Position numbers and translations under genes: made by a program. A stretch of 60,584 bases of DNA, counting the filler. It is 5 parts of 5 records of this genome, joined end to end, with 100 filler letters (N's around TTAATTAATTAA, not from the genome) between each part and the next. Parts side by side here need not be neighbours in the genome. Positions count along the whole stretch, not along the records: positions 39,823 to 55,019 come from SRR22947725_2255; 4 more parts are not named here. One strand, written 5' to 3'. The notes below the pieces were generated by a model. It saw nothing but the letters and a program-made list of their open reading frames with translations. It was not told the origin of the DNA and searched no databases. Position 1 is the stretch's first letter. Each line of letters starts with the position of its first letter. Shown here one piece after another: positions 33 through 57,976 of this stretch.

Positions 33-38
33 TTTCGA

Positions 39-46: not shown

Positions 47-64
47 AGTTAAACCAAAATTATA

Positions 65-5135: not shown

Positions 5136-5136
5136 A

Positions 5137-6351: not shown

Positions 6352-6353
6352 TA

Positions 6354-7694: not shown

Positions 7695-8866
7695 TGAATT
7701 TATTAATAAAAAAAATCAGAGGAGATAAGATAATTTGGTCAATAGTTCTATTATTGGCAGTTTTTTCTTTTTTACCTGTTTACAGTGCAAGCTCTAATTT
7801 TGGAAACAGCTTTGTTTTATCGAATGTCATAAAACATTTTGCAATTATAACAGTTGGTGTTTTAATAATGTACGGTACACATTTAATTCCTTATAAATAT
7901 TTTAAGGGATTGTCAAAATTGGCATTACCTTTAATAATAACTGTTTTACTTATTACTTCTTTACAGGGAAATGTAATAGATGGAGCTAACGCAAGTAGAT
8001 GGATTAAGTTACCAATAATTGGTTTATCTTTTCAGCCGTCGTCGATGGCTATAGTTGTGTTGATGGTTTATGTTTCATTTTATTTGTCTAAAAATTATAA
8101 TAAAAACATAAGTTTTTCTAAATCTATAATTCCTTTATGGATTCCAATTATATTAATAGTGTTTTTAATCTTACCATCAAACTTTTCGACTGCTGCTATG
8201 ATATTTTTGATGATAATTACTTTAATTTTCATTGGAGGATATCCTTTTAAATATTTACTAGGAATAGGGATTTCTGGAATAATACTTTTTTCACTTTTCT
8301 TTTTAACTGTGAAAAATTATCCAGATTTAATGCCTAATAGAATAGATACATGGGTAAGTAGAATCGAAAATTTTTCATCATCTGAGAATTCTGAAAATAA
8401 TTATCAAATTTTGAGAGCTAAATCTGCAATAGCATCTGGAATGGTTTTCGGAGTTGGGGCAGGAAAAAGTTCAATGAAAAATATTCTTCCCCAAAGTACA
8501 TCTGATTTTATTTATGCAATAATTACTGAAGAATATGGAACTGTAGGAGCAATTAGTATATTGTTTCTGTACCTTTTATTATTTTTTAGAGTAATAATAG
8601 TGTCGTATAAGTCTAATACTGTTTTTGGACAATTATTGGCATTAGGTGCAGGGTTACCTATAATTTTTCAAGCATTCATTAATATGGGAGTTGCAGTTCA
8701 GCTTTTCCCTGTTACTGGCCAGCCCCTACCTTTAATAAGTACTGGTGGGACATCTATTTGGATGACTTTTCTAGCACTTGGTATAGTTTTAAGTGTAAGT
8801 TCTAAAGATTCAATAGAAAATTTAAATACTGATAATCCCTTAAATATATTAAGTGAAACAGAATAG
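7694..8866 (+). CDS. ftsW: SEDS-family peptidoglycan polymerase FtsW
   Basis: GANASRWI, FQPS, SDFIYAII.EE.G, PVTGQPLPLISTGGTS; dcw position. Confidence 0.93.
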   Translation: MNLLIKKIRGDKIIWSIVLLLAVFSFLPVYSASSNFGNSFVLSNVIKHFAIITVGVLIMYGTHLIPYKYFKGLSKLALPLIITVLLITSLQGNVIDGANASRWIKLPIIGLSFQPSSMAIVVLMVYVSFYLSKNYNKNISFSKSIIPLWIPIILIVFLILPSNFSTAAMIFLMIITLIFIGGYPFKYLLGIGISGIILFSLFFLTVKNYPDLMPNRIDTWVSRIENFSSSENSENNYQILRAKSAIASGMVFGVGAGKSSMKNILPQSTSDFIYAIITEEYGTVGAISILFLYLLLFFRVIIVSYKSNTVFGQLLALGAGLPIIFQAFINMGVAVQLFPVTGQPLPLISTGGTSIWMTFLALGIVLSVSSKDSIENLNTDNPLNILSETE

Positions 8867-9941
8867 ATTTTTAATTTCAGGTGGAGGAACAGGAGGGCAT
8901 ATTTACCCTGCAATTTCTATTGCTGAAGAATTATCTACAAAATTTGATAACAATAAAATACTGTTTGTTGGTTCATGTGATCGAATGGAGATGCAAAAAG
9001 TTCCAGAATACGGATACGATATTAAAGGATTATGGATTAGTGGAATTAATAGAAAATTACATTTTTCAAATTTATTAGTTCCATTAAAGGTTATTTTAAG
9101 TATTATAAAATCTTATTTTATAATTAAAAACTTTAAACCTGATTTTGTAGTAGGAACCGGAGGTTTTGCCAGTGGACCGGTTTTATATGTTGCTTCAAAA
9201 TTAAAAATACCAACTCTAATTCAAGAGCAAAACTCCTATCCTGGAATTACTAATAGAATTCTATCAAAATCAGTCAATTATATTTGTGTTTCTTATCCAA
9301 AAATGGACAGGTATTTTCCTAAATCTAAATTATTGTTTACTGGAAATCCCGTAAGAAAGGATATTTATGTTTCAACAATCTCTAAAGAAGTTTCATTGGA
9401 GTTTTTTAGTCTAAATAAAAATAAAAAAACCTTATTAGTTTTGGGAGGAAGTTTAGGTGCATTAAAAATTAATGAATTTATTAAATCCAATTTAAATTAT
9501 TTCAAAAAGTTAGGTATTCAAGTTTTATGGCAATGTGGAAAAAATTATTTTCAACAATACCAATCTTTTGATTCGGACATAGTAAAAGTTAAGCCGTTCA
9601 TAAAAAGAATGAACTATGCATATAAAGTAGCTGATTATATTGTATCGAGATCTGGTGCAAGCGTGATTTCTGAATTATGCATTGTTGGTAAGCCAGTGAT
9701 TTTCATTCCTTCTCCGAACGTTGCAGAAGACCATCAAACTAAAAATGCAATGTCAATTGTTAATTTAAATTCTGCAGAAATTGTAAAAGAAAAAGATTTA
9801 GATACTGAGTTTAATCGAGTTTTTGAAAAAATATTTACTAATGAAGAATATTCTTTAAAATTATCAAATTCAATTAAAAAAATTGAAAGGCCTAATGCTA
9901 CGGTTGATATCGTTAATAAAATTAATAGTTTTTTGAAATGA
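8853..9941 (+). CDS. murG: Lipid II GlcNAc transferase
   Basis: GGGTGGHIYP, GGFASGP, EQN, GGSLGA, HQTKNA motifs. Confidence 0.97.
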   Translation: MKQNRFLISGGGTGGHIYPAISIAEELSTKFDNNKILFVGSCDRMEMQKVPEYGYDIKGLWISGINRKLHFSNLLVPLKVILSIIKSYFIIKNFKPDFVVGTGGFASGPVLYVASKLKIPTLIQEQNSYPGITNRILSKSVNYICVSYPKMDRYFPKSKLLFTGNPVRKDIYVSTISKEVSLEFFSLNKNKKTLLVLGGSLGALKINEFIKSNLNYFKKLGIQVLWQCGKNYFQQYQSFDSDIVKVKPFIKRMNYAYKVADYIVSRSGASVISELCIVGKPVIFIPSPNVAEDHQTKNAMSIVNLNSAEIVKEKDLDTEFNRVFEKIFTNEEYSLKLSNSIKKIERPNATVDIVNKINSFLK

Positions 9942-11278
9942 TTAATAATTACAAAAACATTTATTTTTTAGGAATTGGTGGTATAGGCATGTCTTCCTTA
10001 GCTTTTTATTTTATCAATGAAAAAAAATATGTTGCTGGATATGATAAAGTAAATTCTAATATAACTAAACTACTCTCAAATAAAGGCGCTAAAGTTCACT
10101 ACAAAGATGATGTTATAAATATTCCATCTGAGTTTTTAAATCATTTAGAAACTTTGATAGTGTATACTCCTGCTATTTCTAAATCTAATAAAGAGTTTAA
10201 GTTTTTTAAAGAAAATGGATTTAGAATTTTAAAAAGGTCAGAACTTCTTGGACTGATTTCTCAAAATAAATTTTGTATTGCTGTTGCAGGAACTCACGGT
10301 AAAACAACAACTTCATCAATTTTATCTCATATTCTTTATGAAAACAATATTAGCTTTACTTCTTTTATTGGAGGAATCTCTGAGAATTATGACTCAAACT
10401 TATTACAAAATGGAAATGATATTGTATTAGTTGAAGCCGACGAATTTGATAGATCATTCCATACTTTATTTCCAAATATAGCTTGTGTAACCTCAGTTGA
10501 TCCTGATCATTTAGATATTTATAATTCTAAAGAGAAATTAGATAGTGCATTTACCCAATTTGTCGACAACATTAAATCCAAAGGAGTATTATTTTCTAAT
10601 GAAAAAACTTTTCTAGGAGGTATTTCATATGGATTTAGTTCTAAATGTGAATATTTCATATCGAATTATTCTAATTCAAAATCTTCTTCCTTTTTTAATA
10701 TAAATTATAATGGAATTTCAGTCGATTCTGTAAAGTTTAATATGCCAGGAAAGCATAACGCATTAAATGCACTTGCTGCATTTGCAATTGGAAAAGAATT
10801 AAATATTGATGACAAATCAATCATAAACTCTTTGTCTACATTTTTGGGTGTTAAAAGAAGATTTAGCTACGCATTACGATCGCCTAAAATTATTATAGAC
10901 GATTATGCTCACCATCCAAGTGAGATTAAAGCTGTTTATGAAACTGTTAAAGATTTATATCCTAACAAAACAAATACTGCTATTTTTCAACCGCATTTAT
11001 ACTCAAGGACAAGAGATTTTATTGATGAATTTGCAGAAATATTATCAAAATTTGATAATATTATTTTAACAGAAATATATCCTGCAAGAGAAAAACCTAT
11101 AACAAATATTAGTTCTGAAAAATTATTAGAATTAATTGATAATAAAAATAAATCATTATTAAATAAATCTGATTTATCAAATTCTTTAAAAGAATCTGAT
11201 TCTGAAGTTTTTATAATAATGGGCGCTGGAGATATTGCTGATGAAGTTGAAATAATTAAAAATAATATTCTTTTCTGA
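9938..11278 (+). CDS. murC: UDP-MurNAc-L-Ala ligase
   Basis: GIGGIGMS, AGTHGKTTTS, EADEFDRSF, DDYAHHP, FQPH motifs. Confidence 0.97.
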   Translation: MINNYKNIYFLGIGGIGMSSLAFYFINEKKYVAGYDKVNSNITKLLSNKGAKVHYKDDVINIPSEFLNHLETLIVYTPAISKSNKEFKFFKENGFRILKRSELLGLISQNKFCIAVAGTHGKTTTSSILSHILYENNISFTSFIGGISENYDSNLLQNGNDIVLVEADEFDRSFHTLFPNIACVTSVDPDHLDIYNSKEKLDSAFTQFVDNIKSKGVLFSNEKTFLGGISYGFSSKCEYFISNYSNSKSSSFFNINYNGISVDSVKFNMPGKHNALNALAAFAIGKELNIDDKSIINSLSTFLGVKRRFSYALRSPKIIIDDYAHHPSEIKAVYETVKDLYPNKTNTAIFQPHLYSRTRDFIDEFAEILSKFDNIILTEIYPAREKPITNISSEKLLELIDNKNKSLLNKSDLSNSLKESDSEVFIIMGAGDIADEVEIIKNNILF

Positions 11279-11279
11279 T

Positions 11280-11987
11280 ATGAATTTAAATATGTTAAAA
11301 ATGACTTTTTTAGTGCTATCTGTTAGTTTATTGACATTGTTTAGTTTTAATAAAAATCAGAACAGAAGTATTAAGTTTTCTGACTTAAGTTATTTGGATA
11401 CTGATTTTAAATTTATATCTAAAGATTCGGTTAATAAATTGTTAATACAAAGTAAATTAATTTCTAATGAAATTTTGAAAAGTAATTTAAATTTGAAAGA
11501 AATTGAACGTGTAATTTTATCAAACGAATATGTAAGTTCAGTTGAAGTATCACTAAGTATTGAAGGAAAAGTGGGAGTGAATATTATAGAAAAAAATCCA
11601 GTGTTTAGAGTTTTGAATGAAGAATATTATATAGATTCTAACGGAAAAAAAATGCCATTATCTAAAAATTTTTCAGAAATATGTCCAATGATATTAAGTG
11701 ATGTAGATTCGATTGATTTTATAATGTTTGGTGATTTAGGTCTCTTCTTAAAAAATGATAAATTTTTATCAAATCATATAGCTGGATTAACAAAGTCAAA
11801 TAATAAATTAATATTTAACGTAGATGGGTTTAAATATAATTTGAATTTAATCGGTGATACAAACTATGTCTCAAAACTTAAAAAATATGAAGTATTTTTT
11901 AATACTGTTTATTCTTCTGGTTTGTTAGATAGTTTGAAATCCGTGAATCTTGATTTTAAAAATCAGGTTATAATACAAAGAAAATAA
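11280..11987 (+). CDS. ftsQ: Cell division protein FtsQ/DivIB (divergent)
   Basis: N-terminal TM, POTRA-like region, ends LDFKNQVI; lies between murC and ftsA. Confidence 0.8.
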   Translation: MNLNMLKMTFLVLSVSLLTLFSFNKNQNRSIKFSDLSYLDTDFKFISKDSVNKLLIQSKLISNEILKSNLNLKEIERVILSNEYVSSVEVSLSIEGKVGVNIIEKNPVFRVLNEEYYIDSNGKKMPLSKNFSEICPMILSDVDSIDFIMFGDLGLFLKNDKFLSNHIAGLTKSNNKLIFNVDGFKYNLNLIGDTNYVSKLKKYEVFFNTVYSSGLLDSLKSVNLDFKNQVIIQRK

Positions 11988-11989
11988 TT

Positions 11990-13285
11990 ATGGGAACAAA
12001 AAATTTATTTGTCGGATTAGATATAGGCACAACAAAAATTGTTGCTTTAATTGGATCTTTAAATGAATATGGAAAATTAAAAATAATTGGAATAGGTAAA
12101 TCAAAAAGTTTAGGCGTTCATCGTGGAGTAGTAAATAATATTACTCAAACAATTCAATCTATTCAGGCAGCTGTAAATGAAGCAGAATTAAATTCATCAG
12201 AAAAAATTGATAAAGTTATTGTTGGTATTGCTGGTCAACATATCAGAAGCCTTCAACATAGTGACTACATAACCAGAATTAATTCTGATACCGTTATTAA
12301 TACAGATGACTTAGACAAATTAATTAATCAGGTTTATAAATTAGTTATGTTGCCTGGAGAAGAAATAATTCATGTATTGCCTCAAGATTATAAGGTTGAT
12401 GGTCAGGCTGAAATTAATGAGCCAATAGGAATGTTTGGTGGAAGACTAGAAGCAAATTTCCATGTAGTTGTTGGTCAAGTATCTTCAATTAAAAATATAG
12501 CTAGATGCATCAAAAGTGCAGGCATTGATTTTGAAGGAATTACATTAGAGCCTATAGCATCCTCTGATGCTGTGTTAAGTCAAGAAGAAAAAGAAGCAGG
12601 TGTTGCTTTAATTGACATTGGAGGCGGAACTACAGACTTAGCAATTTTTAAAGATGGAATTATTCGTCATACATCTGTGATCCCTTTTGGAGGTAATATT
12701 ATTACTGAAGACATAAAAGAAGGATGTTCAATTATAGAAAAACAGGCAGAACTATTGAAAATTAAATTTGGTTCCGCTTGGCCTGGAGAGAATAAAGAAA
12801 ATGAAATTGTTTCAATTCCAGGTTTAAGAGGAAGAGACCCAAAAGAAATTACTCTAAAAAATTTATCAAAAATTATTCATGCAAGAGTTGTTGAAATAGT
12901 CGAACAGGTTTATATAGAAATTAAAAATTATGGACATGAAGAACAGAAAAAGAAATTGATTGCTGGTATTGTTTTAACTGGAGGTGGTAGTCAATTAAAA
13001 CATTTAAAACAACTCGTTGAATATATAACAGGAATGGATACTAGATTGGGTCACCCTAGCGAACACTTAGCAGGAAATAATTCAATTGATATTTCAAGTC
13101 CTATGTATGCTACAGCTGTTGGTTTGGTTATGAACTCAACAAAAATTAATAAAAAAAGTAATATAAAAGAAGATACAGACAATAATGAACTTGAAGAAAT
13201 TGATGATACTATTCAAAGTGAAAGGTTAACAATTTTTGAAAAGTTTACAGAAAAAATAAAAACATTTTTAGATAACGCCGAATAA
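11990..13285 (+). CDS. ftsA: Cell division protein FtsA
   Basis: GLDIGTTKI, DIGGGTTD, VLTGGGS actin-fold motifs. Confidence 0.97.
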   Translation: MGTKNLFVGLDIGTTKIVALIGSLNEYGKLKIIGIGKSKSLGVHRGVVNNITQTIQSIQAAVNEAELNSSEKIDKVIVGIAGQHIRSLQHSDYITRINSDTVINTDDLDKLINQVYKLVMLPGEEIIHVLPQDYKVDGQAEINEPIGMFGGRLEANFHVVVGQVSSIKNIARCIKSAGIDFEGITLEPIASSDAVLSQEEKEAGVALIDIGGGTTDLAIFKDGIIRHTSVIPFGGNIITEDIKEGCSIIEKQAELLKIKFGSAWPGENKENEIVSIPGLRGRDPKEITLKNLSKIIHARVVEIVEQVYIEIKNYGHEEQKKKLIAGIVLTGGGSQLKHLKQLVEYITGMDTRLGHPSEHLAGNNSIDISSPMYATAVGLVMNSTKINKKSNIKEDTDNNELEEIDDTIQSERLTIFEKFTEKIKTFLDNAE

Positions 13286-13295
13286 ATTAAAGATT

Positions 13296-15116
13296 ATGCA
13301 CTTAAACCCAGAAATAAATAATTTACCATTTGATTTACCTAAAAATCAAAGTAATGTAATAAAAGTCATCGGAGTTGGTGGTGGAGGAAGTAATGCAATT
13401 AATTACATGCACTCTAAAGGAATAAAAGGAGTCGATTTTGTTGTATGCAATACCGATTCACAAGCTTTAGAAAATAGTAGAGTAGAGAATAAAATTCAGC
13501 TTGGTATTTCATTAACAGAAGGTTTAGGAGCTGGTGCTAACCCCGAAATTGGTGAAAAAGCAGCAATGGAAAGCTTTGATGATTTAAAGAAAATGCTTGA
13601 AACAAATACTAAAATGGTTTTTATAACTGCTGGAATGGGAGGAGGAACCGGAACTGGAGCTGCTCCGGTTATCTCTAAATTAGCTAAAGAGTTGGATATT
13701 TTAACTGTAGGAATTGTCACTATGCCATTTCAATTTGAAGGTAAAATAAGAGAACAACAAGCCAAAACAGGGATAGAAAAATTAAGAAAAGAAGTAGATG
13801 CTTTAATTGTAATTAATAATAATAACTTGAGAGATATCTACGGAAATTTAGGATTTAAAGAAGGATTTGCAAAAGCTGATGAAGTGTTAGCTACAGCTTC
13901 AAGAGGAATAGCTGAAGTTATAACTCATCATTATACTCAAAATATTGATTTAAAAGATGCTAAAACAGTCTTATCTAATAGCGGAAATGCTATAATGGGT
14001 TCTTCTACTGCTACTGGTACTAAAAGGTCAATTGAAGCTATTTCATCTGCTCTTGATTCCCCACTTTTAAATGATAATAGAATTACAGGAGCTAAAAATG
14101 TTTTATTATTAATTGTTTCAGGTAAAGAAGAAATAACAATTGATGAAATCGGGCTTATAAATGATTATATTCAAGAAAAAGCCGGTCACGGAGCTAATAT
14201 TATAATGGGAGTAGGTGAGGATTTGAATTTAGAAAACTCTATTTCTGTTACTGTAATTGCCACAGGTTTTGCACCCAATCAACAAGATGAAATTATACAT
14301 TCTGATCCAAAAAAAATAATTCATAATCTTGATGAAAATAGTGGATATGTTCACAATCTAAGTTCTAATAATCAGATTGATAAAAATGATTCTTTACAAT
14401 TTGATTTTGCTTCAAATTCAATTGATTTTAAGAATACTAACCCTGAAATTGAAAATTTAGAAAAAGAAAGGATTATAAATGACATTAATGTTGATTATAA
14501 GGAGATGAATTCAAATTTAATAATTAATGAAGATGAAATTGAAATCAATGATGTTTCACTTAATATTAATGAAATTGAAGTTACTTCACCTGAGGAACTT
14601 AAACCTATTGATCAAGTTTCATTTGATTTTGATATGCCATTAAAAAAACAAATAATTGAGTCAGATAAAATTGTTCATGAACTAATTGAAGATATAAATG
14701 AAATAGAAGTTGTAAATCCTGTTCATATCATTCCTGTAACCGAAGTTAACGGGATAAACGCTAATAAATCAGGTATTGATGATTATGAGATTATTAACAA
14801 GACAGTTGAGCCCTTGGCTTCTGAATTTAAAAATGATAATAATGAAGTAGTTTTAAATCCTTTAAATAGTTCAATTGCCGATGGATTATCTAAAAGAACC
14901 GAAGAGCGAAAAATAAAATTAAAGCAATATAATTACAATTTTACTAAAGCTAATAATATTAATTCTATGGAGAATGAACCTGCTTTTAAAAGAGCCGGAG
15001 TTAGTCTAGATAGTATTGATCAATTTAAATCTTCTAGAACTGTTATTAGTGAAGATTCAAACGGAGAGATTAATTTGCGAACTAGCAATTCGTTTTTACA
15101 TGATAACGTGGATTAA
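13296..15116 (+). CDS. ftsZ: Cell division GTPase FtsZ with long Bacteroidota-type acidic linker
   Basis: GVGGGGSNA, GMGGGTGTG tubulin signature, C-terminal FLHDNVD. Confidence 0.98.
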   Translation: MHLNPEINNLPFDLPKNQSNVIKVIGVGGGGSNAINYMHSKGIKGVDFVVCNTDSQALENSRVENKIQLGISLTEGLGAGANPEIGEKAAMESFDDLKKMLETNTKMVFITAGMGGGTGTGAAPVISKLAKELDILTVGIVTMPFQFEGKIREQQAKTGIEKLRKEVDALIVINNNNLRDIYGNLGFKEGFAKADEVLATASRGIAEVITHHYTQNIDLKDAKTVLSNSGNAIMGSSTATGTKRSIEAISSALDSPLLNDNRITGAKNVLLLIVSGKEEITIDEIGLINDYIQEKAGHGANIIMGVGEDLNLENSISVTVIATGFAPNQQDEIIHSDPKKIIHNLDENSGYVHNLSSNNQIDKNDSLQFDFASNSIDFKNTNPEIENLEKERIINDINVDYKEMNSNLIINEDEIEINDVSLNINEIEVTSPEELKPIDQVSFDFDMPLKKQIIESDKIVHELIEDINEIEVVNPVHIIPVTEVNGINANKSGIDDYEIINKTVEPLASEFKNDNNEVVLNPLNSSIADGLSKRTEERKIKLKQYNYNFTKANNINSMENEPAFKRAGVSLDSIDQFKSSRTVISEDSNGEINLRTSNSFLHDNVD

Positions 15117-15127
15117 AATAAAATCAT

Positions 15128-15577
15128 ATGAAATTAATAAATAAAATATCAAGTTCAATTATTTCAGCAATGAAAGAAAAAAATGTTGATGAATTAGAAT
15201 CTTTAAGAGCAATTAAGTCTGCACTCTTATTAGCTCAAACCCAAAAGGGTTCAGACGGCAATATTCAAGAATCAGATGAAATTAAAATTCTTCAAAAACT
15301 TGTTAAACAAAGAAAAGAAAGTGCAGAGATTTATAAAAAACAAAGTAGATTAGAATTAGCAAATATTGAAATTAACCAATCCAGGATAATTGAAAGATTT
15401 TTACCAGATCAAATTAGTACAGAAGACTTAGATAAATTAATTACTGAAATTATTAATCAGACTGGTGCTCATGGTATGAAAGATATGGGTAAAGTAATGG
15501 GTATTGCATCAAGTAAACTTTCTGGAAAAGCTGATGGCAAAACTATATCTAATATTGTGCGTTCAAAACTTATATAA
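15128..15577 (+). CDS. GatB/YqeY domain protein
   Basis: AMK..., LRAIKSA, KQRKESA, KDMGKVMG, GKADGK motifs. Confidence 0.92.
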   Translation: MKLINKISSSIISAMKEKNVDELESLRAIKSALLLAQTQKGSDGNIQESDEIKILQKLVKQRKESAEIYKKQSRLELANIEINQSRIIERFLPDQISTEDLDKLITEIINQTGAHGMKDMGKVMGIASSKLSGKADGKTISNIVRSKLI

Positions 15578-15593
15578 TAAATAGGGCCCAGCG

Positions 15594-46689: not shown

Positions 46690-47007
46690 CTATTTAGAAA
46701 TTCTGGTTATACTTCCAGAAACCTCTGCTCCTAAGTCAATAGAAAGAGCATTAGTTTTAAGGTTTCCTTCCACTTTTGCACTACTGGCAACATTTAATGT
46801 GTTAGCTGAAACCTCACCTTTAACCAACCCACCAAGCGTAACTTTGTCTGCCACTAAATTTCCATCAAAAATACTATTAGCCTCCAAAAGAACATCTTTA
46901 GCTCTTAATTCTCCTTTAAATCTACCTGCAACTACAACGCTAGATCCAGCTGAGTCTAAATTACCTTCCATTACTAATTCTTCAGAAATATATGTTATTT
47001 CGGTCAT
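46690..47007 (-). CDS. Bactofilin (polymer-forming cytoskeletal protein), copy 3
   Basis: TYISEELVMEGNL...V.GRFKGEL...V.LGGLVKGEV...IDLGA beta-helix repeats. Confidence 0.9.
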   Translation of the reverse strand: MTEITYISEELVMEGNLDSAGSSVVVAGRFKGELRAKDVLLEANSIFDGNLVADKVTLGGLVKGEVSANTLNVASSAKVEGNLKTNALSIDLGAEVSGSITRISK

Positions 47008-47035
47008 AATTTATACCTTTTTAAAAAATGTTGAA

Positions 47036-47428
47036 TTACTTTTTATCTGTTTGTTCATCTGAAACTTCACTAGTTTCTTTTTCCGTTTCATCTACTTTTG
47101 TACTAGCATTTTCATTCCAATTATGAACAACTCTACAATTTAAAGCAGCCCCTCTATCCATTTGTAAGGACTTATAATGGACTTCTCCACTTATACGAGA
47201 TGTTTCAGTAAGCCAAACGCTCTCAGCCTGCATCTTGCCCTCATATTCACCAGCAATTACAACTAAATCAGAATCAACTGCTCCAATAAATTTTCCTGTA
47301 GAACCAATAGTTACTTTTTCAGTAACTAAATCAGCTTCGACAAACCCATTAATTTCAATTGATTTAGCATTAGAAATTTTTCCACTAAACCGGGCTCCAG
47401 ATCCTAAAACTGCCTGTTTATTAGCCAT
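47036..47428 (-). CDS. Bactofilin, copy 2 (acidic C-terminal tail)
   Basis: VLGSGARFSGKI...IEING...V.IG..G...VIAGEYEG...GEVHYKSLQMDRGA. Confidence 0.9.
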   Translation of the reverse strand: MANKQAVLGSGARFSGKISNAKSIEINGFVEADLVTEKVTIGSTGKFIGAVDSDLVVIAGEYEGKMQAESVWLTETSRISGEVHYKSLQMDRGAALNCRVVHNWNENASTKVDETEKETSEVSDEQTDKK

Positions 47429-47440
47429 TTATAATCTCCT

Positions 47441-47785
47441 CTATTTTTTATTTTGTCTTTTGCCAATTTGTGCTTCTATAACTGCACCTTCTTCAATTGA
47501 AATGTTCTCATAAAAAACTTCACCAGAAATTTTCCCAGTAGACTTGACTGAGACAAAATCACCAGAAACTTGACCATCACATTTACCAGATACAGTTATA
47601 ACTTCAGCTTCGATGCTTCCTTTTAATGAACCAGAGCCCTCTACTGATAAACTGTTACATTTAATATCTCCTACAACAGAACCCAATAAAACCAAGCTAC
47701 CTTCAGCAGAAATTTTACCTTTAATTTTCATATCACTTGAAATAATAGATTTTTCAGTATCAGTTTCGTTTGTTCTTCCTAACAT
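47441..47785 (-). CDS. Bactofilin, copy 1
   Basis: SIISSDMKIKGKI...G...GDIKC..L.V..SG...GSI.A..ITVSG...GEVFYENISIEEGA. Confidence 0.92.
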   Translation of the reverse strand: MLGRTNETDTEKSIISSDMKIKGKISAEGSLVLLGSVVGDIKCNSLSVEGSGSLKGSIEAEVITVSGKCDGQVSGDFVSVKSTGKISGEVFYENISIEEGAVIEAQIGKRQNKK

Positions 47786-47895
47786 TATGGAAATCCCTTT
47801 ATCCTACTAGTTACATTCAATTAGAATTTGTTTTATAATAAACATTAGTCATTATAATTAAACTAATTAAAAAAAATATTCAAAATACATTTATT

Positions 47896-47911
47896 TGGTA
47901 TAAATGATGCA
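47896..47911 (+). promoter_or_regulatory. Sigma54 -24/-12 promoter facing the 124-aa ORF and M23 peptidase
   Basis: TGGTATAAATGATGCA: GG(47897-98)-N10-GC(47909-10). Confidence 0.65.
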
Positions 47912-47923
47912 ATTAACTTGCCA
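47908..47923 (-). promoter_or_regulatory. Sigma54 -24/-12 promoter facing the bactofilin triplet
   Basis: Minus strand TGGCAAGTTAATTGCA: GG-N10-GC, close to the TGGCAC-N5-TTGC consensus. Confidence 0.75.
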
Positions 47924-47960
47924 TAATAGTCACTGATAAAAAAAATTAGAGAATTTCAAA

Positions 47961-48335
47961 ATGGCTGAAGAAATAATTGATTTGAGAGACCGCATAGAGA
48001 AGATGCGAGTCCAGATAGAAAATGAAGGCACAGAACAAATTAGAGAAAATTTTTCTAATGAAGTTTACCAAAAAACTAAAACTTCAAACATAACTTTATC
48101 AATGCAGCCTAAGAAAGTCGATGCGAATCAAAATCATGAAAAGGTGATGAACAGCAAAGAGCTAAAGATAAAAGACAATACCACAAATGAAAATCAGAAA
48201 AAAAATGAGACTTTTCCTGCTGTTAGTTTGTCGGTTAAAAACCCTATTTCTAACAAAATTTTAGTTTCTATGTTTATAGTTCAAATTTTGTCCAATTTTG
48301 GCATTCTTTTCTTTCTTTATTTAGGACTGGAGTAA
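47961..48335 (+). CDS. Hypothetical protein with N-terminal coiled coil and C-terminal TM anchor
   Basis: Charged N-terminal helix, polar linker, hydrophobic tail ILVSMFIVQILSNFGILFFLYLG; ends 3 nt before the M23 gene. Confidence 0.7.
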   Translation: MAEEIIDLRDRIEKMRVQIENEGTEQIRENFSNEVYQKTKTSNITLSMQPKKVDANQNHEKVMNSKELKIKDNTTNENQKKNETFPAVSLSVKNPISNKILVSMFIVQILSNFGILFFLYLGLE

Positions 48336-48338
48336 CTA

Positions 48339-49679
48339 GTGGTTAATTCCACATTTAATAAATTTGGAAAAAACCTTCCACCTGTAAAAACTGGACAGCG
48401 GTTTGGAGATCAAATCCAAAAAAACAAAAAATTAGGCTTATTTTCTGAAAGACGTTTTCTGATTTTTACTAGAAAAGGTCCAATCGAAATTGCTTTTAAA
48501 CCAATACATTATACTGGTGCTATAATTTCTACTTTTGTTGGTTTAACAAGTATTATTTATTGGTCAGCACAAGGGTTATTTTCTGCAATAGATGTTGCAA
48601 AAAAAAATGATATAATTACCGAAGCTTCAGCAAATATTCCAAGCCCTATTGAAAATGACTCCGACACTGTAGTGAATATAGATGTTCAAGATCAATCTAA
48701 TATTACACTTCCAACCTCAAGAAAAATATTAGATGATGATTATAATAATCAAAATGAAATTTATGAAATAATAAAAAACAGCCAAATACCAAATAGTAAT
48801 TTAAAATTTAATGGTAAAACTAATTCTAATTTTACAGCAGCTAAAATAAATACTTTTAAATATAGTCTTTTTAAAAGTACTAGAAGAAATCAAGACATTC
48901 CTGTTTTGTCTTCACAAGAAATTTATAATGAAAATAATATTATCACATCAAAACTTTTAAACAACGAAACAGATACAGAATTTAAAGTACCACAACCTCC
49001 TAAATTAAACGCCAAAGCAAAAAGTCTACGTTTTTTAGCCTCTGTTAATAATGAATTATTACAAATGGAAAATGTATTTAGGAAGATTAAAGTAAGAGTA
49101 AACAATACAGACTTAGTTAGCGTTGATTCAATAATAAACAATGGTCAAGATATTGATCCGGAAAGTGATGACTTTTTTAGAAATTTAAGCAATCGTCTTA
49201 ATTTATTAGCAATTTACAAAGAAGCTCTTCAAAACATACCACTTAAACCTCCTATGGAACATTATTACGTTTCAAGCTCTTATGGACCAAGAAAACACCC
49301 AGTGACTGGCAAATATAGAATGCACCATGGTATTGATTTAGCAGGAACATGGCAGGAAAATGTCACAGTTTCAGCAGATGGCAATGTTGTTTTTGCTGGC
49401 TATCATGGGTCATTTGGAAAAGTCATTAGAATTAAACACAATTATGGCATAATGACTACATATGGCCATTTAGCAAAAATTAATGTTAAAAGGGGTGACA
49501 TTGTAAGTGAAGGACAAGTTATTGGAAAAATGGGCAGGACAGGAAGGGTCAAAGGTGCTCACCTTCATTATGAAATATCTGTCAATGGAAAGTCTCAAAA
49601 CCCAGCTAAATATATAAAGATAGGTAGAAATCTTCTCAGTAGATCAAGCTTAAAAGGATTCGTTAATAAATCAGATTAA
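48339..49679 (+). CDS. Membrane-anchored M23 (LytM) peptidoglycan endopeptidase, LmdC-like
   Basis: Single N-proximal TM, long linker and coiled coil, HHGIDLAG (HxxxD), YGHL, GAHLHYEI (HxH). Confidence 0.92.
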   Translation: MVNSTFNKFGKNLPPVKTGQRFGDQIQKNKKLGLFSERRFLIFTRKGPIEIAFKPIHYTGAIISTFVGLTSIIYWSAQGLFSAIDVAKKNDIITEASANIPSPIENDSDTVVNIDVQDQSNITLPTSRKILDDDYNNQNEIYEIIKNSQIPNSNLKFNGKTNSNFTAAKINTFKYSLFKSTRRNQDIPVLSSQEIYNENNIITSKLLNNETDTEFKVPQPPKLNAKAKSLRFLASVNNELLQMENVFRKIKVRVNNTDLVSVDSIINNGQDIDPESDDFFRNLSNRLNLLAIYKEALQNIPLKPPMEHYYVSSSYGPRKHPVTGKYRMHHGIDLAGTWQENVTVSADGNVVFAGYHGSFGKVIRIKHNYGIMTTYGHLAKINVKRGDIVSEGQVIGKMGRTGRVKGAHLHYEISVNGKSQNPAKYIKIGRNLLSRSSLKGFVNKSD

Positions 49680-49689
49680 AAATAGAGTT

Positions 49690-49705
49690 TGGCATAACTA
49701 ATGCA
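49690..49705 (+). promoter_or_regulatory. Sigma54 -24/-12 promoter facing the 63-aa ORF
   Basis: TGGCATAACTAATGCA: GG(49691-92)-N10-GC(49703-04). Confidence 0.7.
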
Positions 49706-49735
49706 TTTAATTTCTAGCTATGGAGATTAAAAAAA

Positions 49736-49927
49736 ATGTTAAAAAAATTAAATCTACAAAATAACAATCAAGAAAAATTTCTATTTAACAATATAAATGA
49801 TTATGTAATAAAAATAGATTATTATGATGATAAAGGTACTAAAAAGAAAAAATATAATGTTCCATTAAAATATATTTTGAATAATAGTTATCATATGTCA
49901 AATAAGCCTGACTTCTGTGTTAATTAA
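49736..49927 (+). CDS. Small hypothetical protein, 63 aa
   Basis: GGAG Shine-Dalgarno and a sigma54 motif upstream; abuts the rpoN stop. Confidence 0.55.
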   Translation: MLKKLNLQNNNQEKFLFNNINDYVIKIDYYDDKGTKKKKYNVPLKYILNNSYHMSNKPDFCVN

Positions 49928-49929
49928 AA

Positions 49930-51432
49930 TTAATTAGATACCATCTTCTGTAATCTTGATGCTCTTCTTCTTTGAGCACTTGATGGAATTTTAAGCATAT
50001 CTCTATACTTAGCTACTGTTCTTCTGGCCACATTCATTCCATCTTTATTCAAAATTCTAGCTAATTTATCGTCACTAAGAGGTTTGTTAGATATCTCTGA
50101 AGATATCAAGCTTTTTATAGTTTCTCTTACAGCTGAAGCCGCATGCATTTCTGAATTTTCTGAACTAGAAATAGACGCTGAAAAAAATTGTTTTAGCGGG
50201 AAAACTCCCCACTCTGTTAACATAAGTTTACTATTAGTCACCCTTGACACTGTGCTTTCATGCATTCCAATTGCGTCTGAAATATCCTTCAATATCATTG
50301 GTTTCATATGATTAAGCCCGTGCCTAAAAAAACCAATTTGTTTTCTAACTATTTCAGATGTTACTTTTAATATAGTTTTATTTCTCTGTTCTACTGCTTT
50401 TTTAAGCCAACGTGCTTCACCTATTTTTTCAAAAGTAAAATTATTGGCTTTCTCATCTAATTTATATTTTTCAATTTCATTTATATATTCTTCATCAATT
50501 GAAACGGTTGGTAAAGTTGATCCGTTCAAATCAATTCTCCAACCTTTTTCTGATCTATTGACAATTATATCTGGTTGATCAACCAAAATTTTTTCTTGTG
50601 AAAAATTTTCGGCAGGTTTTGGATTCAAAGTTTTAATAACTTTTATCATTTCAAATAAAGAATTCACTGAAACTTTGCATAGCTTACTAATTTGCTTAAA
50701 TTTTCCCGAAGGTAAATGCGGTAGGTTATCTAATAGAATATTATAATGTTCATTAAAAAGGTTTTTATCAATTAATTGTAGTTTTAAACATTCAGATAAA
50801 TTTTCAGAAAATATACCAACAGGTTCTAATCTTTTTAATCTATCTAATATTTGCGAAATTTTTTGTTCATTGATATTTAAATCCTTTTCAATCTCACTTT
50901 TAGAATGCGTAAACCAACCGCTTGGGTGCAAATAATCAATCATGGCTATTGCAATAGACTTATTATCCTTATCACTAAATTCTATGTTAATTTGATTTAC
51001 AAGACTTTCTTTAAGAGAAATTTTATTTTCTAGCGTTTTCTCAATTACTTCACCAGCAGATACATTATTACCAGTTCTTAGTATTTCCTTGTCATATAGT
51101 TTTTTATTTTCTTGGTTATTATTTGATGACAAGTGTGAATCAAAAGTGTTTTGCATATCTAATTCACTATTCTTTTTTAAAGGATCTGAGGTATTATTCA
51201 TATTTTGATATACGTCAGGACTTTCAGTTCCTTTGTTTGTATTATTTATTTCCAAGTACTCCTTTTGATCTTGAATAAAAGGGTTTTCTAATTGCGCTTT
51301 TTCAACAAACTCAGCTAATTCTAAATTAGTCAACTGCAATAATTTTATTGCCTGTTGCAATTGAGGTGTCATAATTAAAGACTGGTTTTGTTTGATTTTA
51401 AGCTGTTGACCCAATTTCATTTTAATCTCCAT
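49930..51432 (-). CDS. rpoN: RNA polymerase sigma-54 factor
   Basis: MTPQLQQAIKLLQL, HESTVSR, PLSD, RpoN box ARRTVAKYR. Confidence 0.97.
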   Translation of the reverse strand: MEIKMKLGQQLKIKQNQSLIMTPQLQQAIKLLQLTNLELAEFVEKAQLENPFIQDQKEYLEINNTNKGTESPDVYQNMNNTSDPLKKNSELDMQNTFDSHLSSNNNQENKKLYDKEILRTGNNVSAGEVIEKTLENKISLKESLVNQINIEFSDKDNKSIAIAMIDYLHPSGWFTHSKSEIEKDLNINEQKISQILDRLKRLEPVGIFSENLSECLKLQLIDKNLFNEHYNILLDNLPHLPSGKFKQISKLCKVSVNSLFEMIKVIKTLNPKPAENFSQEKILVDQPDIIVNRSEKGWRIDLNGSTLPTVSIDEEYINEIEKYKLDEKANNFTFEKIGEARWLKKAVEQRNKTILKVTSEIVRKQIGFFRHGLNHMKPMILKDISDAIGMHESTVSRVTNSKLMLTEWGVFPLKQFFSASISSSENSEMHAASAVRETIKSLISSEISNKPLSDDKLARILNKDGMNVARRTVAKYRDMLKIPSSAQRRRASRLQKMVSN

Positions 51433-51696
51433 AAAGTAAATTTGTTACTTAACGATCAAAGGAAAACAGTAAAATTAAAACAAATCAAAATCTTAATTTG
51501 ACGAATAAATAAAACAAAAAAATGACTGATATAATATTCAAATTGAAAAAATAAAACTAATAAAAACAGTTGCTTATATAATTTATAGAAAAAAGATACT
51601 TTTTAGTTTATAAATTTCATATGTATATATAAAAAGAAGTGTCAATTATTTGGCAAAATAACAACTGATTTATTTTACTGAGATAAAATTAAAACT

Positions 51697-51930
51697 TTGA
51701 TTATACCTAATGAACCAAATACGAAACCAAAATGCAAAAATTGCCAGATAATTCGTATTTTCTTACTAAGTGTCGCTTTTATTATACTATTAAGCCTAAT
51801 ACAAAGTGACAAATTACATTATCTTAAAATAATTACTCCATATAATGCTGCTTTTTTAATAATATTCTTAGGTTTAATTATGTTTTGTATAAAATTAATA
51901 AAATATTTGGCAGAAAAGAAAAAAAATTAG
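51697..51930 (+). CDS. Small two-TM hypothetical protein with CxxC
   Basis: CKNC followed by two hydrophobic segments; TTG start, so the start is uncertain. Confidence 0.6.
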   Translation: MIIPNEPNTKPKCKNCQIIRIFLLSVAFIILLSLIQSDKLHYLKIITPYNAAFLIIFLGLIMFCIKLIKYLAEKKKN

Positions 51931-51932
51931 AA

Positions 51933-52427
51933 CTATCTATCTCGAACCAACCTTACATAATTAGGGATAAATTCAGGAAACCTTCCAAAAGTATGTCCTG
52001 TGAAAAAGTTAACTGTCCACATAAATTTAGGCTGCCAGGCATTTATTTCATTTGTCCAAAATGACTCAGCAGGAGTGTTAGGAAAAAGTTTTGTATCAAT
52101 TTTAACAGCGCCACATGATTTACAGACAATTCGTTCTAACTCTTTCCTATTAGGCAAACGCCACTTTCCTCCTAGTTGTTCACTAGCTTGTTCAATGGCA
52201 AATTTTATTTGTTTATATTTTAATTTTAAAGGTGTACCTACACAAGTTTTATCTTGCCATACCATTCCAACTGGGCATGTTAACCATTCAATTTTTTGTC
52301 CAAGGTCGATAACATAATGTCCCCTAGTGATAAAATTACTAGCCCAAACATTGTTGAAATTCGAATAAATTAATAATAGTATAATTATAGCTTTAACACT
52401 AATTAGTGGTATTTTGAAAAATAACAT
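51933..52427 (-). CDS. DUF1566 (Lcl C-terminal-like) exported protein
   Basis: Signal peptide, V.D....L.W..C..G..W, WRLPNRKEL, FPNTP...FWT, W.VNF..G, VRLVR. Confidence 0.88.
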   Translation of the reverse strand: MLFFKIPLISVKAIIILLLIYSNFNNVWASNFITRGHYVIDLGQKIEWLTCPVGMVWQDKTCVGTPLKLKYKQIKFAIEQASEQLGGKWRLPNRKELERIVCKSCGAVKIDTKLFPNTPAESFWTNEINAWQPKFMWTVNFFTGHTFGRFPEFIPNYVRLVRDR

Positions 52428-52460
52428 AAAACCTCTGTGTTTTTTTATAAATTCTTATTT

Positions 52461-52476
52461 TGGTCTTATTCTTGCA
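52461..52476 (+). promoter_or_regulatory. Sigma54 -24/-12 promoter facing motA-motB
   Basis: TGGTCTTATTCTTGCA: GG(52462-63)-N10-GC(52474-75). Confidence 0.7.
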
Positions 52477-52488
52477 GTAATTGTGCCT
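52473..52488 (-). promoter_or_regulatory. Sigma54 -24/-12 promoter facing the DUF1566 gene
   Basis: Minus strand AGGCACAATTACTGCA: GG-N10-GC with a GGCAC -24 box. Confidence 0.7.
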
Positions 52489-52523
52489 AATATCACTATT
52501 TTATACATAAAAAAGGCAAAAAA

Positions 52524-53288
52524 ATGGATATAGCATCTTTAATTGGACTAATAGGTACTCTAGGAATGATAGCTGGGGCCATGGTTTCTTCAGGAGGCAT
52601 TGGAGCCTTTATAGACACACCATCAATGTTGATTGTTATCGGGGGAACATTCTTTGCAGTTATGTACCGATCAACCTTGCCAATGTTCTTAGCTTCATTT
52701 GGTGCTATGGTCAAAGTTTTCATGCCTGGAGCAAAAAAGCATGATGAATTAATTACTAGACTTACTGAACTAGCGGGAATTGCAAGGAAAGATGGAATGA
52801 TGGCGTTAGAAGGCCAAGAAGTTCCTGATAAATTTTTTGAAAAAGGTTTGCAAATGCTTGTTGATGGAGCTGATGAATCTAAATTAACAGATCAATTAAA
52901 CAGAGAATTAAAAGCTATGAAAGTTAGGCACGAAAATATGACAGGAGTTTTCCAAGCTTGGGTTGATTTAGCGCCAGCCATGGGAATGATTGGAACACTT
53001 ATTGGGCTTGTTGCAATGTTGGGTAATATGGCTGACCCAAAGGCTATTGGTCCTGCTATGGCTGTTGCTTTATTAACAACCTTGTATGGTGCTATGATAG
53101 CTAACTGTATATTTATGCCAATTGTAACAAAATTGGAGGGCTATTCGGCGCATGAAGTGCTTTATAGAGAAATGGTTGTTATGGGCCTAAAATTTATCTC
53201 TAGAGGAGAAAGTCCAAGAAATATTACTGATCAGTTAGTTGCAAACTTACCACCAAAAATCCAAGCCCAAATTGAAGAAGCTGCATAA
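52524..53288 (+). CDS. motA: Flagellar-type stator A subunit, PomA-like (probably Na+-coupled)
   Basis: MDIASLIG, ARKDG..ALE, APAMGMIGTLIGLVAML.NM.DPKAIGPAMAVALLTTLYG. Confidence 0.93.
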   Translation: MDIASLIGLIGTLGMIAGAMVSSGGIGAFIDTPSMLIVIGGTFFAVMYRSTLPMFLASFGAMVKVFMPGAKKHDELITRLTELAGIARKDGMMALEGQEVPDKFFEKGLQMLVDGADESKLTDQLNRELKAMKVRHENMTGVFQAWVDLAPAMGMIGTLIGLVAMLGNMADPKAIGPAMAVALLTTLYGAMIANCIFMPIVTKLEGYSAHEVLYREMVVMGLKFISRGESPRNITDQLVANLPPKIQAQIEEAA

Positions 53289-53312
53289 TTTTTTAGTAAG
53301 TAGGGGTTAAAA

Positions 53313-54491
53313 ATGGCTGAAGCTCAAGTAGTAGAAGAACAAGAAGAAGAAGAAGAATGTCCCAAATGCCCACCAGCAGGAGCACCTGCTTGGATGGCTA
53401 CATTTGCCGATATGGCCACCTTATTAATGGCATTTTTTGTTCTAATCTTATCTTTCGCAGAATTTAATGTTCCAAAGTTTAAACAAATAAGTGGTAGTTT
53501 AAAAAATGCTTTTGGCGTTCAAAAAGTTGTTCCGGTAGTTGAACAACCAAAAGGTACTACAGTATTATCATTAAATTTTAGTCCATCACCTGCTCCTTCA
53601 GTCACAAAAAATCTCAGACAACAAACTTCAGATTCAGAGCAAAAAAACTTAGATCTAAAATCTGAAATTGATGAAGGTGATAGCGCTAAAAGTAATTCAA
53701 AAGAAGTTATGGATGCAAAGGAATTAAGCGAACAAATAAAATCTGAAGTTTCCTCAGAAGACGTTAAAGTTGAAACAGTAAACGACAAAGTTTTACTTAG
53801 CTTAAACACAGAAAACAAAACAGCAGACGAAATTTCTAATTTAATAAAAGATACTGTTGATGCTGTTGAAAATGCTAGAGAAAGTACAGGCGCTAATGAG
53901 ACAGACGTTCTTATTGGTGGGATAGATAAAGACATTAAATCTATGGCTTCTGCAGAAATAGAAAATAAATCATTAAAAGAACAAATGAATAACCTAGAAA
54001 AGCAGAATTCCAATGATAAAAAGGATTTACAGGAAAAGACAAAAAAAGCTGAATTTAGTGAAGATCAACTAAAAGTTGCTCTTAAACAAGAAATTGGTAA
54101 AGGTTTGGCTGAAGTTCAAAGAGAAAAAGATAGAGTTATAGTAACAGTTGGATCAGCAGGAGCTTTTAGTTCTGGATCTGCAAGGCTTACAAAGCAAGCA
54201 AGAGCCATAATGCAAAAAATAGCTAAAGTTAGTGGCAAAGGTGCAGGCCAGGTTAATGTTTCTGGACATACAGATAACGTACCACTAATTTTTGGAGGTC
54301 AATATAGAGATAATTGGGATCTTGCCGCTGCTAGAGCATCAAGCGTTGTTCAAGAGCTAGCAAAAGCAAACACTATACCTTCTGAAAAGTTAAAAGCTAT
54401 TAGTTTTGGAGAAACCAAACCCATAGAACAAAATGACACACGTGACGGTAGAGAAAAAAATAGACGAATTGAAATTGAAATCAAATATTGA
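53313..54491 (+). CDS. motB: Flagellar-type stator B subunit, PomB-like, with OmpA-like peptidoglycan-binding domain
   Basis: CPKCPP.G.PAWMATFAD (conserved Asp), GHTDNVP, NWDLAAARA.SV, NRRIEI. Confidence 0.93.
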   Translation: MAEAQVVEEQEEEEECPKCPPAGAPAWMATFADMATLLMAFFVLILSFAEFNVPKFKQISGSLKNAFGVQKVVPVVEQPKGTTVLSLNFSPSPAPSVTKNLRQQTSDSEQKNLDLKSEIDEGDSAKSNSKEVMDAKELSEQIKSEVSSEDVKVETVNDKVLLSLNTENKTADEISNLIKDTVDAVENARESTGANETDVLIGGIDKDIKSMASAEIENKSLKEQMNNLEKQNSNDKKDLQEKTKKAEFSEDQLKVALKQEIGKGLAEVQREKDRVIVTVGSAGAFSSGSARLTKQARAIMQKIAKVSGKGAGQVNVSGHTDNVPLIFGGQYRDNWDLAAARASSVVQELAKANTIPSEKLKAISFGETKPIEQNDTRDGREKNRRIEIEIKY

Positions 54492-54509
54492 TAATATTAA
54501 TTAAAGTTT

Positions 54510-55019: not shown

Positions 55020-55119
55020 NNNNNNNNNNNNNNNNNNNNNNNNNNNNNNNNNNNNNNNNNNNNTTAATTAATTAANNNNNNNNNNNNNNNNNNNNNNNNN
55101 NNNNNNNNNNNNNNNNNNN
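55020..55119. other. Artificial contig linker
   Basis: N44-TTAATTAATTAA-N44. Confidence 0.98.
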
Positions 55120-55694
55120 ATAAAAGCCTTCATAGCAGCAGATGAGTTTTCTTTCTTTTCCCAATAATGACCAATTAACAAGTAGGAGCAAACACCTACT
55201 AGCTCCCATCCAATTAAAAGTTGTAATAGTGTTGGTGAGGAAACCAAAACTAACATACTTCCAGCAAACAAGGTTAGAGAGGTGAAGAAAAAAGTATACC
55301 TGACTTCTCCCTGCATATAATTTGTGGCGTAAATGAAAACTAAACTAGCTACTGTCCCAACAACAAAATACATCATTATAGAAAGACCGTCTACCACCCA
55401 ACCAAATTCAAGATCAAATGAACCAATGCTTCCCACATTGATAAAAAATTCTGAAGCTACCCCTTCTGTGACATTTAAATAGAGTAGGTATGAACTGAAA
55501 GCAAAGATGAAACCTATCGTAGCAAGCGCAATTTCAGCACCCTTAAGTGGTAGATATTTTCCAAAGAAAGTAATTAGAAGAGCAGCTATAAATGGGAGAA
55601 CGACAATCAACCAAGTGTATTCAGCGAAAGCTCCACCGTCGGTGTATGTAAGTTTTCCTTCAGCTAGAAAGGTGATTAAATTACTATTTACCAT
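55120..55694 (-). CDS. nuoL: NADH-quinone oxidoreductase subunit L, 3'-truncated
   Basis: DGLS..M, Y...YM.G, GWELVGVCSYLLIG, AAMKAF motifs. Confidence 0.93.
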
Positions 55695-56995: not shown

Positions 56996-57976
56996 TTAAA
57001 ATACAACTTTCATTATGGATGTTATCAATATGTTGAGTAAAGAAAGGGGAATTAAAACCTTCCATGCTAAGTTTTGTAGCTGATCTTCTCTGAATCTAGG
57101 AAATGACCATCTCACTAAAACTAGAATGAAGCCAAGCAAAACTGTTTTAGTAATTAAGACAACTGGTCCATAAAAGTTGACCCATTCAGGTGGGAGAAGT
57201 GGGACATGATATCCACCTAGAAATAATGTCGAAGCGACTGCACATAATACAAACATGTTCATGTATTCAGCAATATAAAATATTAAAAATCTTACGCCAG
57301 AATATTCTGTTAAAAATCCACTAACAAGTTCGGACTCACCAATTGGCATATCGAACGGTACTCTCATCATTTCAGCTGTTGCAGCTATCATAAAAATTAG
57401 GAAGGCAAGACCTTGGCCAGAAAGTGCAAATGGAAGTCCAAATTCTATTTGTTTCTCAACTATCCCAACAAGTGACATGGTTTCGGCCTGGATGACAACT
57501 CCAACTACTGCAAGAATTAATGGAAGTTCATATGCAATTAACTGTCCTGCAGCACGTATTCCACCCATTAAAGAGTACTTATTTGCTGAGGACCAACCTG
57601 CAGTAAGAACCCCTAATGTTGAAAGTGAACTTATCGCTAGCAAATAGAAAACTCCTAATTCTAAATCACTCCCAACTAAAGTTGGGCTGATTGGTACAAC
57701 AACGAATAAACCAAAGACTGATGCAAGTACATAAGCTGGTGCCCATTTAAATACAGGAGCGTCAACATTTGTCGGTGTAATATCTTCTTTTTGGAAAAAT
57801 TTAATTATTTCAGCTAGTGGAAAAATGAATCCTCTTAATCCAACATGAAGAGGCCCAGGTCTTCTTTGCATCCATGATGCTCCTTTAACATCGAGAATTG
57901 TAAATATTACTGCTCCGTTTAGTGCAAAAGCTAAAACGATTCCTGCAGTTACTAATATTTGAGAACCATCAATCAT
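56996..57976 (-). CDS. nuoH: NADH-quinone oxidoreductase subunit H
   Basis: MQ.R.GP, KEDI.P, GWSSANKYSL.G, AYELP, R.PFD...ESELV.G..TEYSG, PRFR.DQL. Confidence 0.95.
   Translation of the reverse strand: MIDGSQILVTAGIVLAFALNGAVIFTILDVKGASWMQRRPGPLHVGLRGFIFPLAEIIKFFQKEDITPTNVDAPVFKWAPAYVLASVFGLFVVVPISPTLVGSDLELGVFYLLAISSLSTLGVLTAGWSSANKYSLMGGIRAAGQLIAYELPLILAVVGVVIQAETMSLVGIVEKQIEFGLPFALSGQGLAFLIFMIAATAEMMRVPFDMPIGESELVSGFLTEYSGVRFLIFYIAEYMNMFVLCAVASTLFLGGYHVPLLPPEWVNFYGPVVLITKTVLLGFILVLVRWSFPRFREDQLQNLAWKVLIPLSLLNILITSIMKVVF

Follow-up and report, generated by a model that had tools for sequence, protein, structure and literature searches.

The element described here lies at positions 52461-52488 of a 60,584 nt stretch of DNA, the whole of which was analysed and is referred to below as the window. 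It occupies a gap of 96 nt (24 % G+C) between two divergent transcription units. On the + strand, motA (52524-53288) and motB (53313-54491) were recognized by the Pfam families MotA_ExbB, MotB_plug and OmpA, and on the - strand a gene for a 164 aa protein of the Lcl_C (DUF1566) family extends over 51933-52427 (Pfam PF07603, E value 1.9e-20). An earlier reading made from the letters alone (the sequence-only reading) had named motAB and a DUF1566 gene as the divergent pair, and the Pfam matches on opposite strands confirm this. Purine-rich stretches that can be read as ribosome-binding sites precede the start codons of both motA and the Lcl_C gene. About 1 kb from the element, the - strand carries rpoN, the gene for sigma-54 (49930-51432; 500 aa), with all three Pfam sigma-54 domains.

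The Lcl_C gene and the stator genes are probably regulated together. The Lcl_C protein, the N-terminus of which looks like a signal peptide on reading the translation, is a candidate periplasmic motor-associated protein. In the 80 related loci described below, the gene always sits between rpoN and motAB. A 77 aa ORF with two hydrophobic stretches and no family match is found on the + strand (51697-51930), in the 500 nt gap separating rpoN and the Lcl_C gene.

The window falls into three unrelated pieces, which suggests that it represents concatenated or mis-binned contigs. The first, positions 1-15591, has 100 % identity with a contig of the small genome G001, which lacks motA; the second, positions ~15592-39822, at 34-42 % G+C, matches neither G001 nor the SAR116 genomes; and the third, positions 39823-60584, is colinear with a contig of the SAR116 metagenome-assembled genome (MAG) G043, at 99 % identity. 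The last piece holds both of the two-way elements discussed here, site 1 and site 2. G001 and its genus were rejected as kin of the element's region, as they match only 1-15591. In the same piece, a NuoL-like gene of 208 aa (55068-55694, - strand) contains the N-terminal domain and the first 40 membrane-domain positions only and adjoins the stop of an oppositely oriented gene with weak RRF similarity, which makes a truncation or rearrangement possible.

The 28 bp element in the motA gap, site 2 (TGGTCTTATTCTTGCAGTAATTGTGCCT), has no strand of its own, and its sequence matches exactly the GG-N10-GC-N10-CC pattern centred on TGCA that had been claimed for it. The GG is at 52462-52463, the GC at 52474-52475 and the CC at 52486-52487, with 10 nt on each side of the GC. 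Both halves use the palindromic TGCA at 52473-52476 as their putative -12 core, so that the forward GC and the reverse GC are one dinucleotide. The motAB-facing half (TGGTCTTATTCTTGCA; 52461-52476, + strand) has GG and GC exactly 10 nt apart in a TGG...TTGCW context. The Lcl_C-facing half (AGGCACAATTACTGCA; 52473-52488, - strand) has the same GG/GC spacing, with two mismatches to TGGCAC-N5-TTGCW. Applying the usual distance of 12 nt from the -12 element, transcription of motA would start near 52487, leaving a leader of ~37 nt, and that of the Lcl_C gene near 52462, leaving ~35 nt, and both half-sites therefore lie at a workable distance from the gene that they face. A hairpin reading of the element was rejected (-0.6 kcal/mol, z 0.39).

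Site 1 (TGGTATAAATGATGCAATTAACTTGCCA; 47896-47923, with the pattern from GG to CC at 47897-47922) is a second two-way element of the same design. Its - half (47908-47923) faces an operon of three bactofilin genes on the - strand (46690-47785; individually 47441-47785, 47036-47428 and 46690-47007; Pfam PF04519). Its + half (47896-47911) faces orf124 and an M23 peptidase gene (together 47961-49679, + strand; peptidase 48339-49679). The orf124 product is a small protein of no family with a hydrophobic C-terminal stretch, which we read as a membrane protein. With bactofilins divergent from a small membrane protein and an M23 peptidase, the region 46690-49679 resembles a cell-shape-type module, and this module appears to be under sigma-54 along with the flagellar genes. 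The two sites are 4565 nt apart, in line with the ~4.6 kb given by the sequence-only reading, and their spacers agree at only 8 of 18 positions, from which it follows, as that reading had also held, that they are not a recent duplication.

Two further matches in the window differ from this design or from this setting. A one-way sigma-54-type promoter (TGGCATAACTAATGCA; 49690-49705, + strand) lies upstream of orf63 (49736-49927), a conserved small ORF of ~50-65 aa that belongs to no family and is convergent with rpoN. This promoter scores higher on the matrix than any other position of the window (18.8 bits), and both motif and orf63 are found in all 37 distinct related regions. A third match to the loose two-way pattern, at 57522-57547, falls inside nuoH and has no counterpart in the near-identical MAG G043; we attribute it to chance.

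The sigma-54 system of these organisms could be examined in sister genomes, above all in G042 (locus L051), a complete genome of 2.2 Mb that carries both site 1 and site 2. The consensus TGGYMY-N5-TTGCW occurs 31 times in G042, against seven matches to a backwards control, and 32 times in G043, against three. The G042 sites are clustered in a 100 kb flagellar region, where fliK, fliS, flagellin, fliD, rod genes, flhA and TPR genes are preceded by intergenic sites at distances of 11-108 nt, and where ordinary, separated divergent pairs also occur, for example 1571344(-) with 1571417(+). Judged by these sequence matches, sigma-54 is the flagellar sigma factor in the SAR116 genomes examined. G042 and G043 each encode four enhancer-binding activators, including two within the flagellar cluster, so that with rpoN in the window the components expected for sigma-54 promoters are present. 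The two flagellar activators are divergent; in G042 one has 398 aa and no HTH_8 domain, and the other has 375 aa, an HTH_8 domain and no receiver domain. In G043 they lie on contig C110 (L148) at 49-1245 (-) and 1429-2556 (+). Their best NCBIfam match is FlbD, below the cut-off of that family. A search upstream of 16 flagellar promoter regions for a common activator-binding motif returned only A+T-rich words.

A matrix was built from 15 independent flagellar sigma-54 promoters of G042 and scored at all 120,158 positions of the window. The bactofilin-facing half of site 1 ranked second (17.8 bits) and the Lcl_C-facing half of site 2 fourth (15.4 bits), both on the - strand; on the + strand, the motA-facing half of site 2 ranked 13th (11.7 bits) and the orf124-facing half of site 1 31st (8.4 bits). 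None of the four half-sites reaches the score of any training promoter (18.5-24.7 bits). The training promoters were picked by a consensus filter and are biased towards high scores of their own; the difference fits a compromise between overlapping promoters, and is partly selection bias too.

Four metatranscriptome runs from four studies were compared with positions 47000-54500. Contigs bridge site 2 in all four runs. Around site 1 they break in all four (gaps at 47790-47928, 47790-47935, 47849-47888 and 47874-47906). All of these are assembled contigs, which carry no information on start, strand or level, and carried-over DNA, strain differences in the variable spacers or k-mer assembly can account for bridging and breaks alike.

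Against shuffled sequence of the same composition, the pattern GG-N9-TGCA-N9-CC is enriched. The whole window holds three sites, against 0.22 in shuffles, and none of 100 shuffles reached three. The intergenic DNA of the window (22 segments, 2813 nt) holds two, against 0.002 expected; none of 20,000 intergenic shuffles had at least two sites, and 43 had at least one. Two of the five divergent gaps of the window have the motif. Across whole genomes, matches to the loose pattern are for the most part background in coding DNA, with 30 sites in G042, 24 in G043 and 20 in G044. All 22 loose sites of G043 besides sites 1 and 2 are inside long open frames; nine of the other 28 in G042 were inspected, all nine of which are in ORFs, as are four of the five inspected among the other 18 in G044. 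Because of this coding background, and because the backwards control for the loose pattern differs in composition (ACGT instead of TGCA), we relied on intergenic shuffles and on a spacing control. The two-way design is non-random, and in a G043-type genome it is limited to sites 1 and 2.

Conservation was followed across 80 related loci that encode MotA relatives, G042 included, which come from marine Alphaproteobacteria of SAR116/Puniceispirillales type, an order to which we infer that they belong. In 77 of the 80 the genes run rpoN(-), Lcl_C gene(-), motAB(+), and the other three are interrupted by contig ends. Three loci with short flanks (L084, L098 and L109) were left out of the scoring, and in all 77 scorable loci a forward sigma-54-type site precedes motA. 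The state of the reverse half varies. In 61 of the 77 loci it shares the same GC, in a gap of median 100 nt (range 80-155 nt). In six it is separate, lying 40-52 nt to the left and facing the Lcl_C gene, in a gap of 142-164 nt. In the remaining ten (gap 102-272 nt) only the motA promoter was found, which indicates that the Lcl_C gene can dispense with a recognizable sigma-54 site. The separate, back-to-back reverse sites belong to three lineages (L089/91, L092/93 and L098/99/101); L098, which is outside the count, has the same separate layout.

The two-way pattern is present in 61 of the full set of 80 loci, namely in 48 of 48 loci of the window's clade (clade A) and in 13 of 14 of a second clade (clade B). 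The reverse halves differ between the clades, being of AGGCAY type in one and a full TGGTAT box in the other, with GG and GC kept, and in clade B the ends of the element form a perfect 9 bp inverted repeat. At site 2, a 30 nt core is conserved at 0.97 in clade A, against 0.72 in the flanks (43 distinct, TGCA-anchored windows), and at 0.95 against 0.74 in clade B; at site 1, the core reaches 0.94 against 0.67; as these windows were picked by the pattern, so that GG, TGCA and CC are fixed by construction, the fair count is that of loci, namely 48/48, 13/14 and 37/37. The last figure refers to site 1, where both halves occur with all 37 distinct spacers and the spacer beside GCCA varies freely. 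For both directions, then, the elements are conserved as the surrounding DNA diverges, which supports the bidirectional sigma-54 reading. Together with the shuffles, it also bears out the argument of the sequence-only reading that two exact occurrences argue for selection. On a tree of MotA, the shared state needs only two changes and the three clades form nearly a trichotomy, so the 61 shared-state loci amount to few independent events. The fusion may have had a single or a double origin, both of which are compatible with this tree.

We also asked how far the design recurs. In 151 genomes of the order to which G042 belongs, a strict version, TGGYNY-N6-TGCA-N6-RNRCCA, gave 95 sites, located in 80 of them, against four for a backwards control. 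Lengthening each spacer by one base reduced this to 22 sites, spread over 20 genomes and G+C-rich and coding in appearance. Among the 75 of the 95 strict sites that were listed, inspection by eye assigned ~37 to a new family, ~11 to site 1 and two to site 2 of clade B. At all eight inspected loci of this third family (L166, L167, L169, L170, L191, L192, L194 and L195, at ~1501-1528 in each), the element lies between flgB (TIGR01396, 105 bits) and a divergent gene of no family encoding 230-335 aa, and both halves read TTGCA. The third element is absent as such from G042 and G043; in G042 the flgB promoter is present and the reverse half is missing.

The third family is found in A+T-rich and in G+C-richer genomes alike, so the fused design is not tied to genome streamlining. 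The suggestion that it is a recurring promoter design of a streamlined genome consequently stands in part: the design recurs across the order (95 sites against 22), whereas the link to streamlining does not hold, and a G043-type genome has only two sites. Nor is the design general in Alphaproteobacteria: among 301 genomes of the class, the strict pattern gave 100 sites in 76 genomes, against 64 for the backwards control, most of them G+C-rich and coding-like (two of the 100 come from an unpublished genome, G431, and no claim is built on them). One recurrent match, fam4, was rejected because it falls on the opening codons of a gene that is conserved and that we read as dapA. Further strict matches with good sigma-54 halves were seen at G074:C1:2210843, G107:C3:1724, and G460:C13:45804 and 46773; one of these further matches is common to two genomes, and another is present at two positions, separated by 969 nt, within one genome of the class sample.

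We estimate a probability of about two in three that the element consists of two sigma-54 promoters merged on a single palindromic -12 box, with one orientation occupied at a time. The shared -12 architecture predicted by the sequence-only reading draws support from the geometry, the conservation, the matrix scores, the separate pairs of relatives, and the 95 strict sites against 22 in the spacing control. Rightward, the GG at 52462-52463 and the GC at 52474-52475 would be the -24/-12 pair for motAB; leftward, the CC at 52486-52487, a GG on the other strand, would pair with the same GC to serve the Lcl_C gene. In standard numbering the core reads T(-14)G(-13)C(-12)A(-11). As TGCA is its own reverse complement, one -12 core can serve both directions, and a second -24 box placed 10 nt past it on the other strand would create a second promoter. 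Two holoenzymes cannot use one GC simultaneously, so occupancy would be mutually exclusive: the holoenzyme would bind in only one orientation at once, each DNA copy would fire one way per binding event, and the ratio of the two directions would be set by the affinities of the half-sites. Both directions would depend on an enhancer-binding ATPase.

The predicted starts would be ~25 nt apart, each on the -24 box of the other promoter, and the gap would be divided into a leader of ~35 nt, a core of 24 nt and a leader of 37 nt. With leaders of this size on both sides of the core, the 96 nt gap would have no space for enhancer DNA. Activator sites, if present, would then lie in coding DNA; alternatively, activation could proceed from solution, one of the flagellar activators having no HTH domain. 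The fused form may have arisen from a separated pair as the gap shrank.

It is also conceivable, though in our view unlikely, that each site has a single working sigma-54 direction, towards motA at site 2 and towards the bactofilin operon at site 1. The other, mirrored half would then owe its conservation to a different role, for instance in the start region or leader of the true transcript, and the opposite gene would be read from an unrecognized promoter. Conservation at site 2 indeed continues ~14 nt past the CC into the motA leader, so that the CC could be kept for a function of the leader, and the halves are unequal at both sites (8.4 against 17.8 bits at site 1, 11.7 against 15.4 bits at site 2). 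The ten relatives with a motA promoter and no reverse partner agree with this account as well, but where relatives have the forward half alone the CC is missing, which implies that the forward promoter does not need it. Moreover, the half with the higher score at site 2 is the Lcl_C-facing one and not that facing motA, three lineages have separate reverse sigma-54 sites facing the Lcl_C gene, and in clade B the reverse half is a full TGGTAT box. As for an unrecognized promoter, a sigma-70 consensus scan found no sigma-70-like site on the element or on the - strand of the 96 nt gap, though its total over the whole region did not exceed that of shuffles (27 sites against 28.7).

The symmetry of the fixed positions would suit an operator for a dimeric DNA-binding protein, such as a repressor or the activator with the HTH domain, superimposed on a single sigma-54 promoter. 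The 9 bp inverted repeat in clade B and the HTH_8 domain of one flagellar activator point the same way. This explanation is nevertheless quite improbable: the symmetry matches sigma-54 spacing to the base, one extra base in each spacer lowering the count from 95 to 22; the arms of site 2 in the window's clade are complementary only at GG/CC and TGCA; the spacers vary freely; and the other 15 flagellar promoters have no such operator. Chance resemblance in A+T-rich DNA is hardly credible as the source of the element. A loose pattern found 20-30 times per genome might seem to invite it, but those matches are nearly always coding, whereas intergenic DNA of the window has two sites where 0.002 are expected, and the pattern is invariant in the 48 clade A loci.

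Fused sigma-54 promoters would thus remain the preferred reading of the single element. For the wider proposition, we lean only slightly towards accepting that SAR116 bacteria use a fused 28 bp -24/-12/-24 promoter that has been selected at three unrelated gene pairs (Lcl_C gene/motAB, bactofilins/M23 peptidase and flgB/no-family gene) and that drives mutually exclusive directions gated by an activator. To our knowledge, sigma-54 promoters have been treated as strictly directional and as requiring upstream enhancer DNA. If the reading is correct, 28 bp can drive two operons, a palindromic TGCA core permits the holoenzyme a choice of orientation, stable closed complexes could set divergent genes competing for one site, and activation is possibly independent of an enhancer. 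The element would offer a simple object on which to study how orientation is recognized by the sigma-54 holoenzyme and how activation proceeds when no enhancer DNA intervenes. In an abundant clade of the ocean, the stator genes, the conserved Lcl_C protein and the bactofilin/M23 cell-shape module would, in addition, belong to the flagellar sigma-54 regulon.

In the full-text literature, in which subscription journals are thinly covered, we found no description of sigma-54 promoters that share a -12 box, which is not proof of absence. Several known systems are related in part. The ordinary flagellar promoters of these genomes share with the fused element the consensus family TGGCAY-N5-TTGCW and the theme of the regulon, the promoter at 49690 being an example in the window, but they are one-way and, at 18.5-24.7 bits, score above any fused half-site. 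Divergent sigma-54 pairs that share an enhancer region are known from zraP-zraSR and hyc-hyp of Escherichia coli and from flbG-flaN of Caulobacter. Like these, site 2 would have two sigma-54 promoters pointing outward from one gap, probably with a common activator, and the zraP-zraSR layout itself is present at the Lcl_C/motA pair in the three lineages with separate reverse sites, and in the flagellar pairs of G042. In the zraP-zraSR type, however, the two -24/-12 elements are separate and do not overlap, and activator sites lie between them; at site 2 both directions use the GC at 52474-52475, and there is zero DNA between the promoters.

Sigma-70 promoters that are bidirectional by symmetry, with one -10 element for both directions, were reportedly described by Warman et al. 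in 2021, as cited in PMC12825309. The fused element, if the reading holds, would be their sigma-54 counterpart. According to PMC12825309, one binding event at such shared -10 promoters excludes the other, a pseudo-symmetric core accepts polymerase in either orientation and starts on opposite strands flank the core; neither sigma54 nor RpoN occurs in that paper. Site 2 likewise has a self-complementary core common to both directions (TGCA, 52473-52476), but the shared element is not a -10 hexamer, and the sigma-70 scan lists none on it. The sigma-70 type opens DNA spontaneously, whereas site 2 would need a -24 box of its own for each direction, at a fixed distance, and an ATPase activator.
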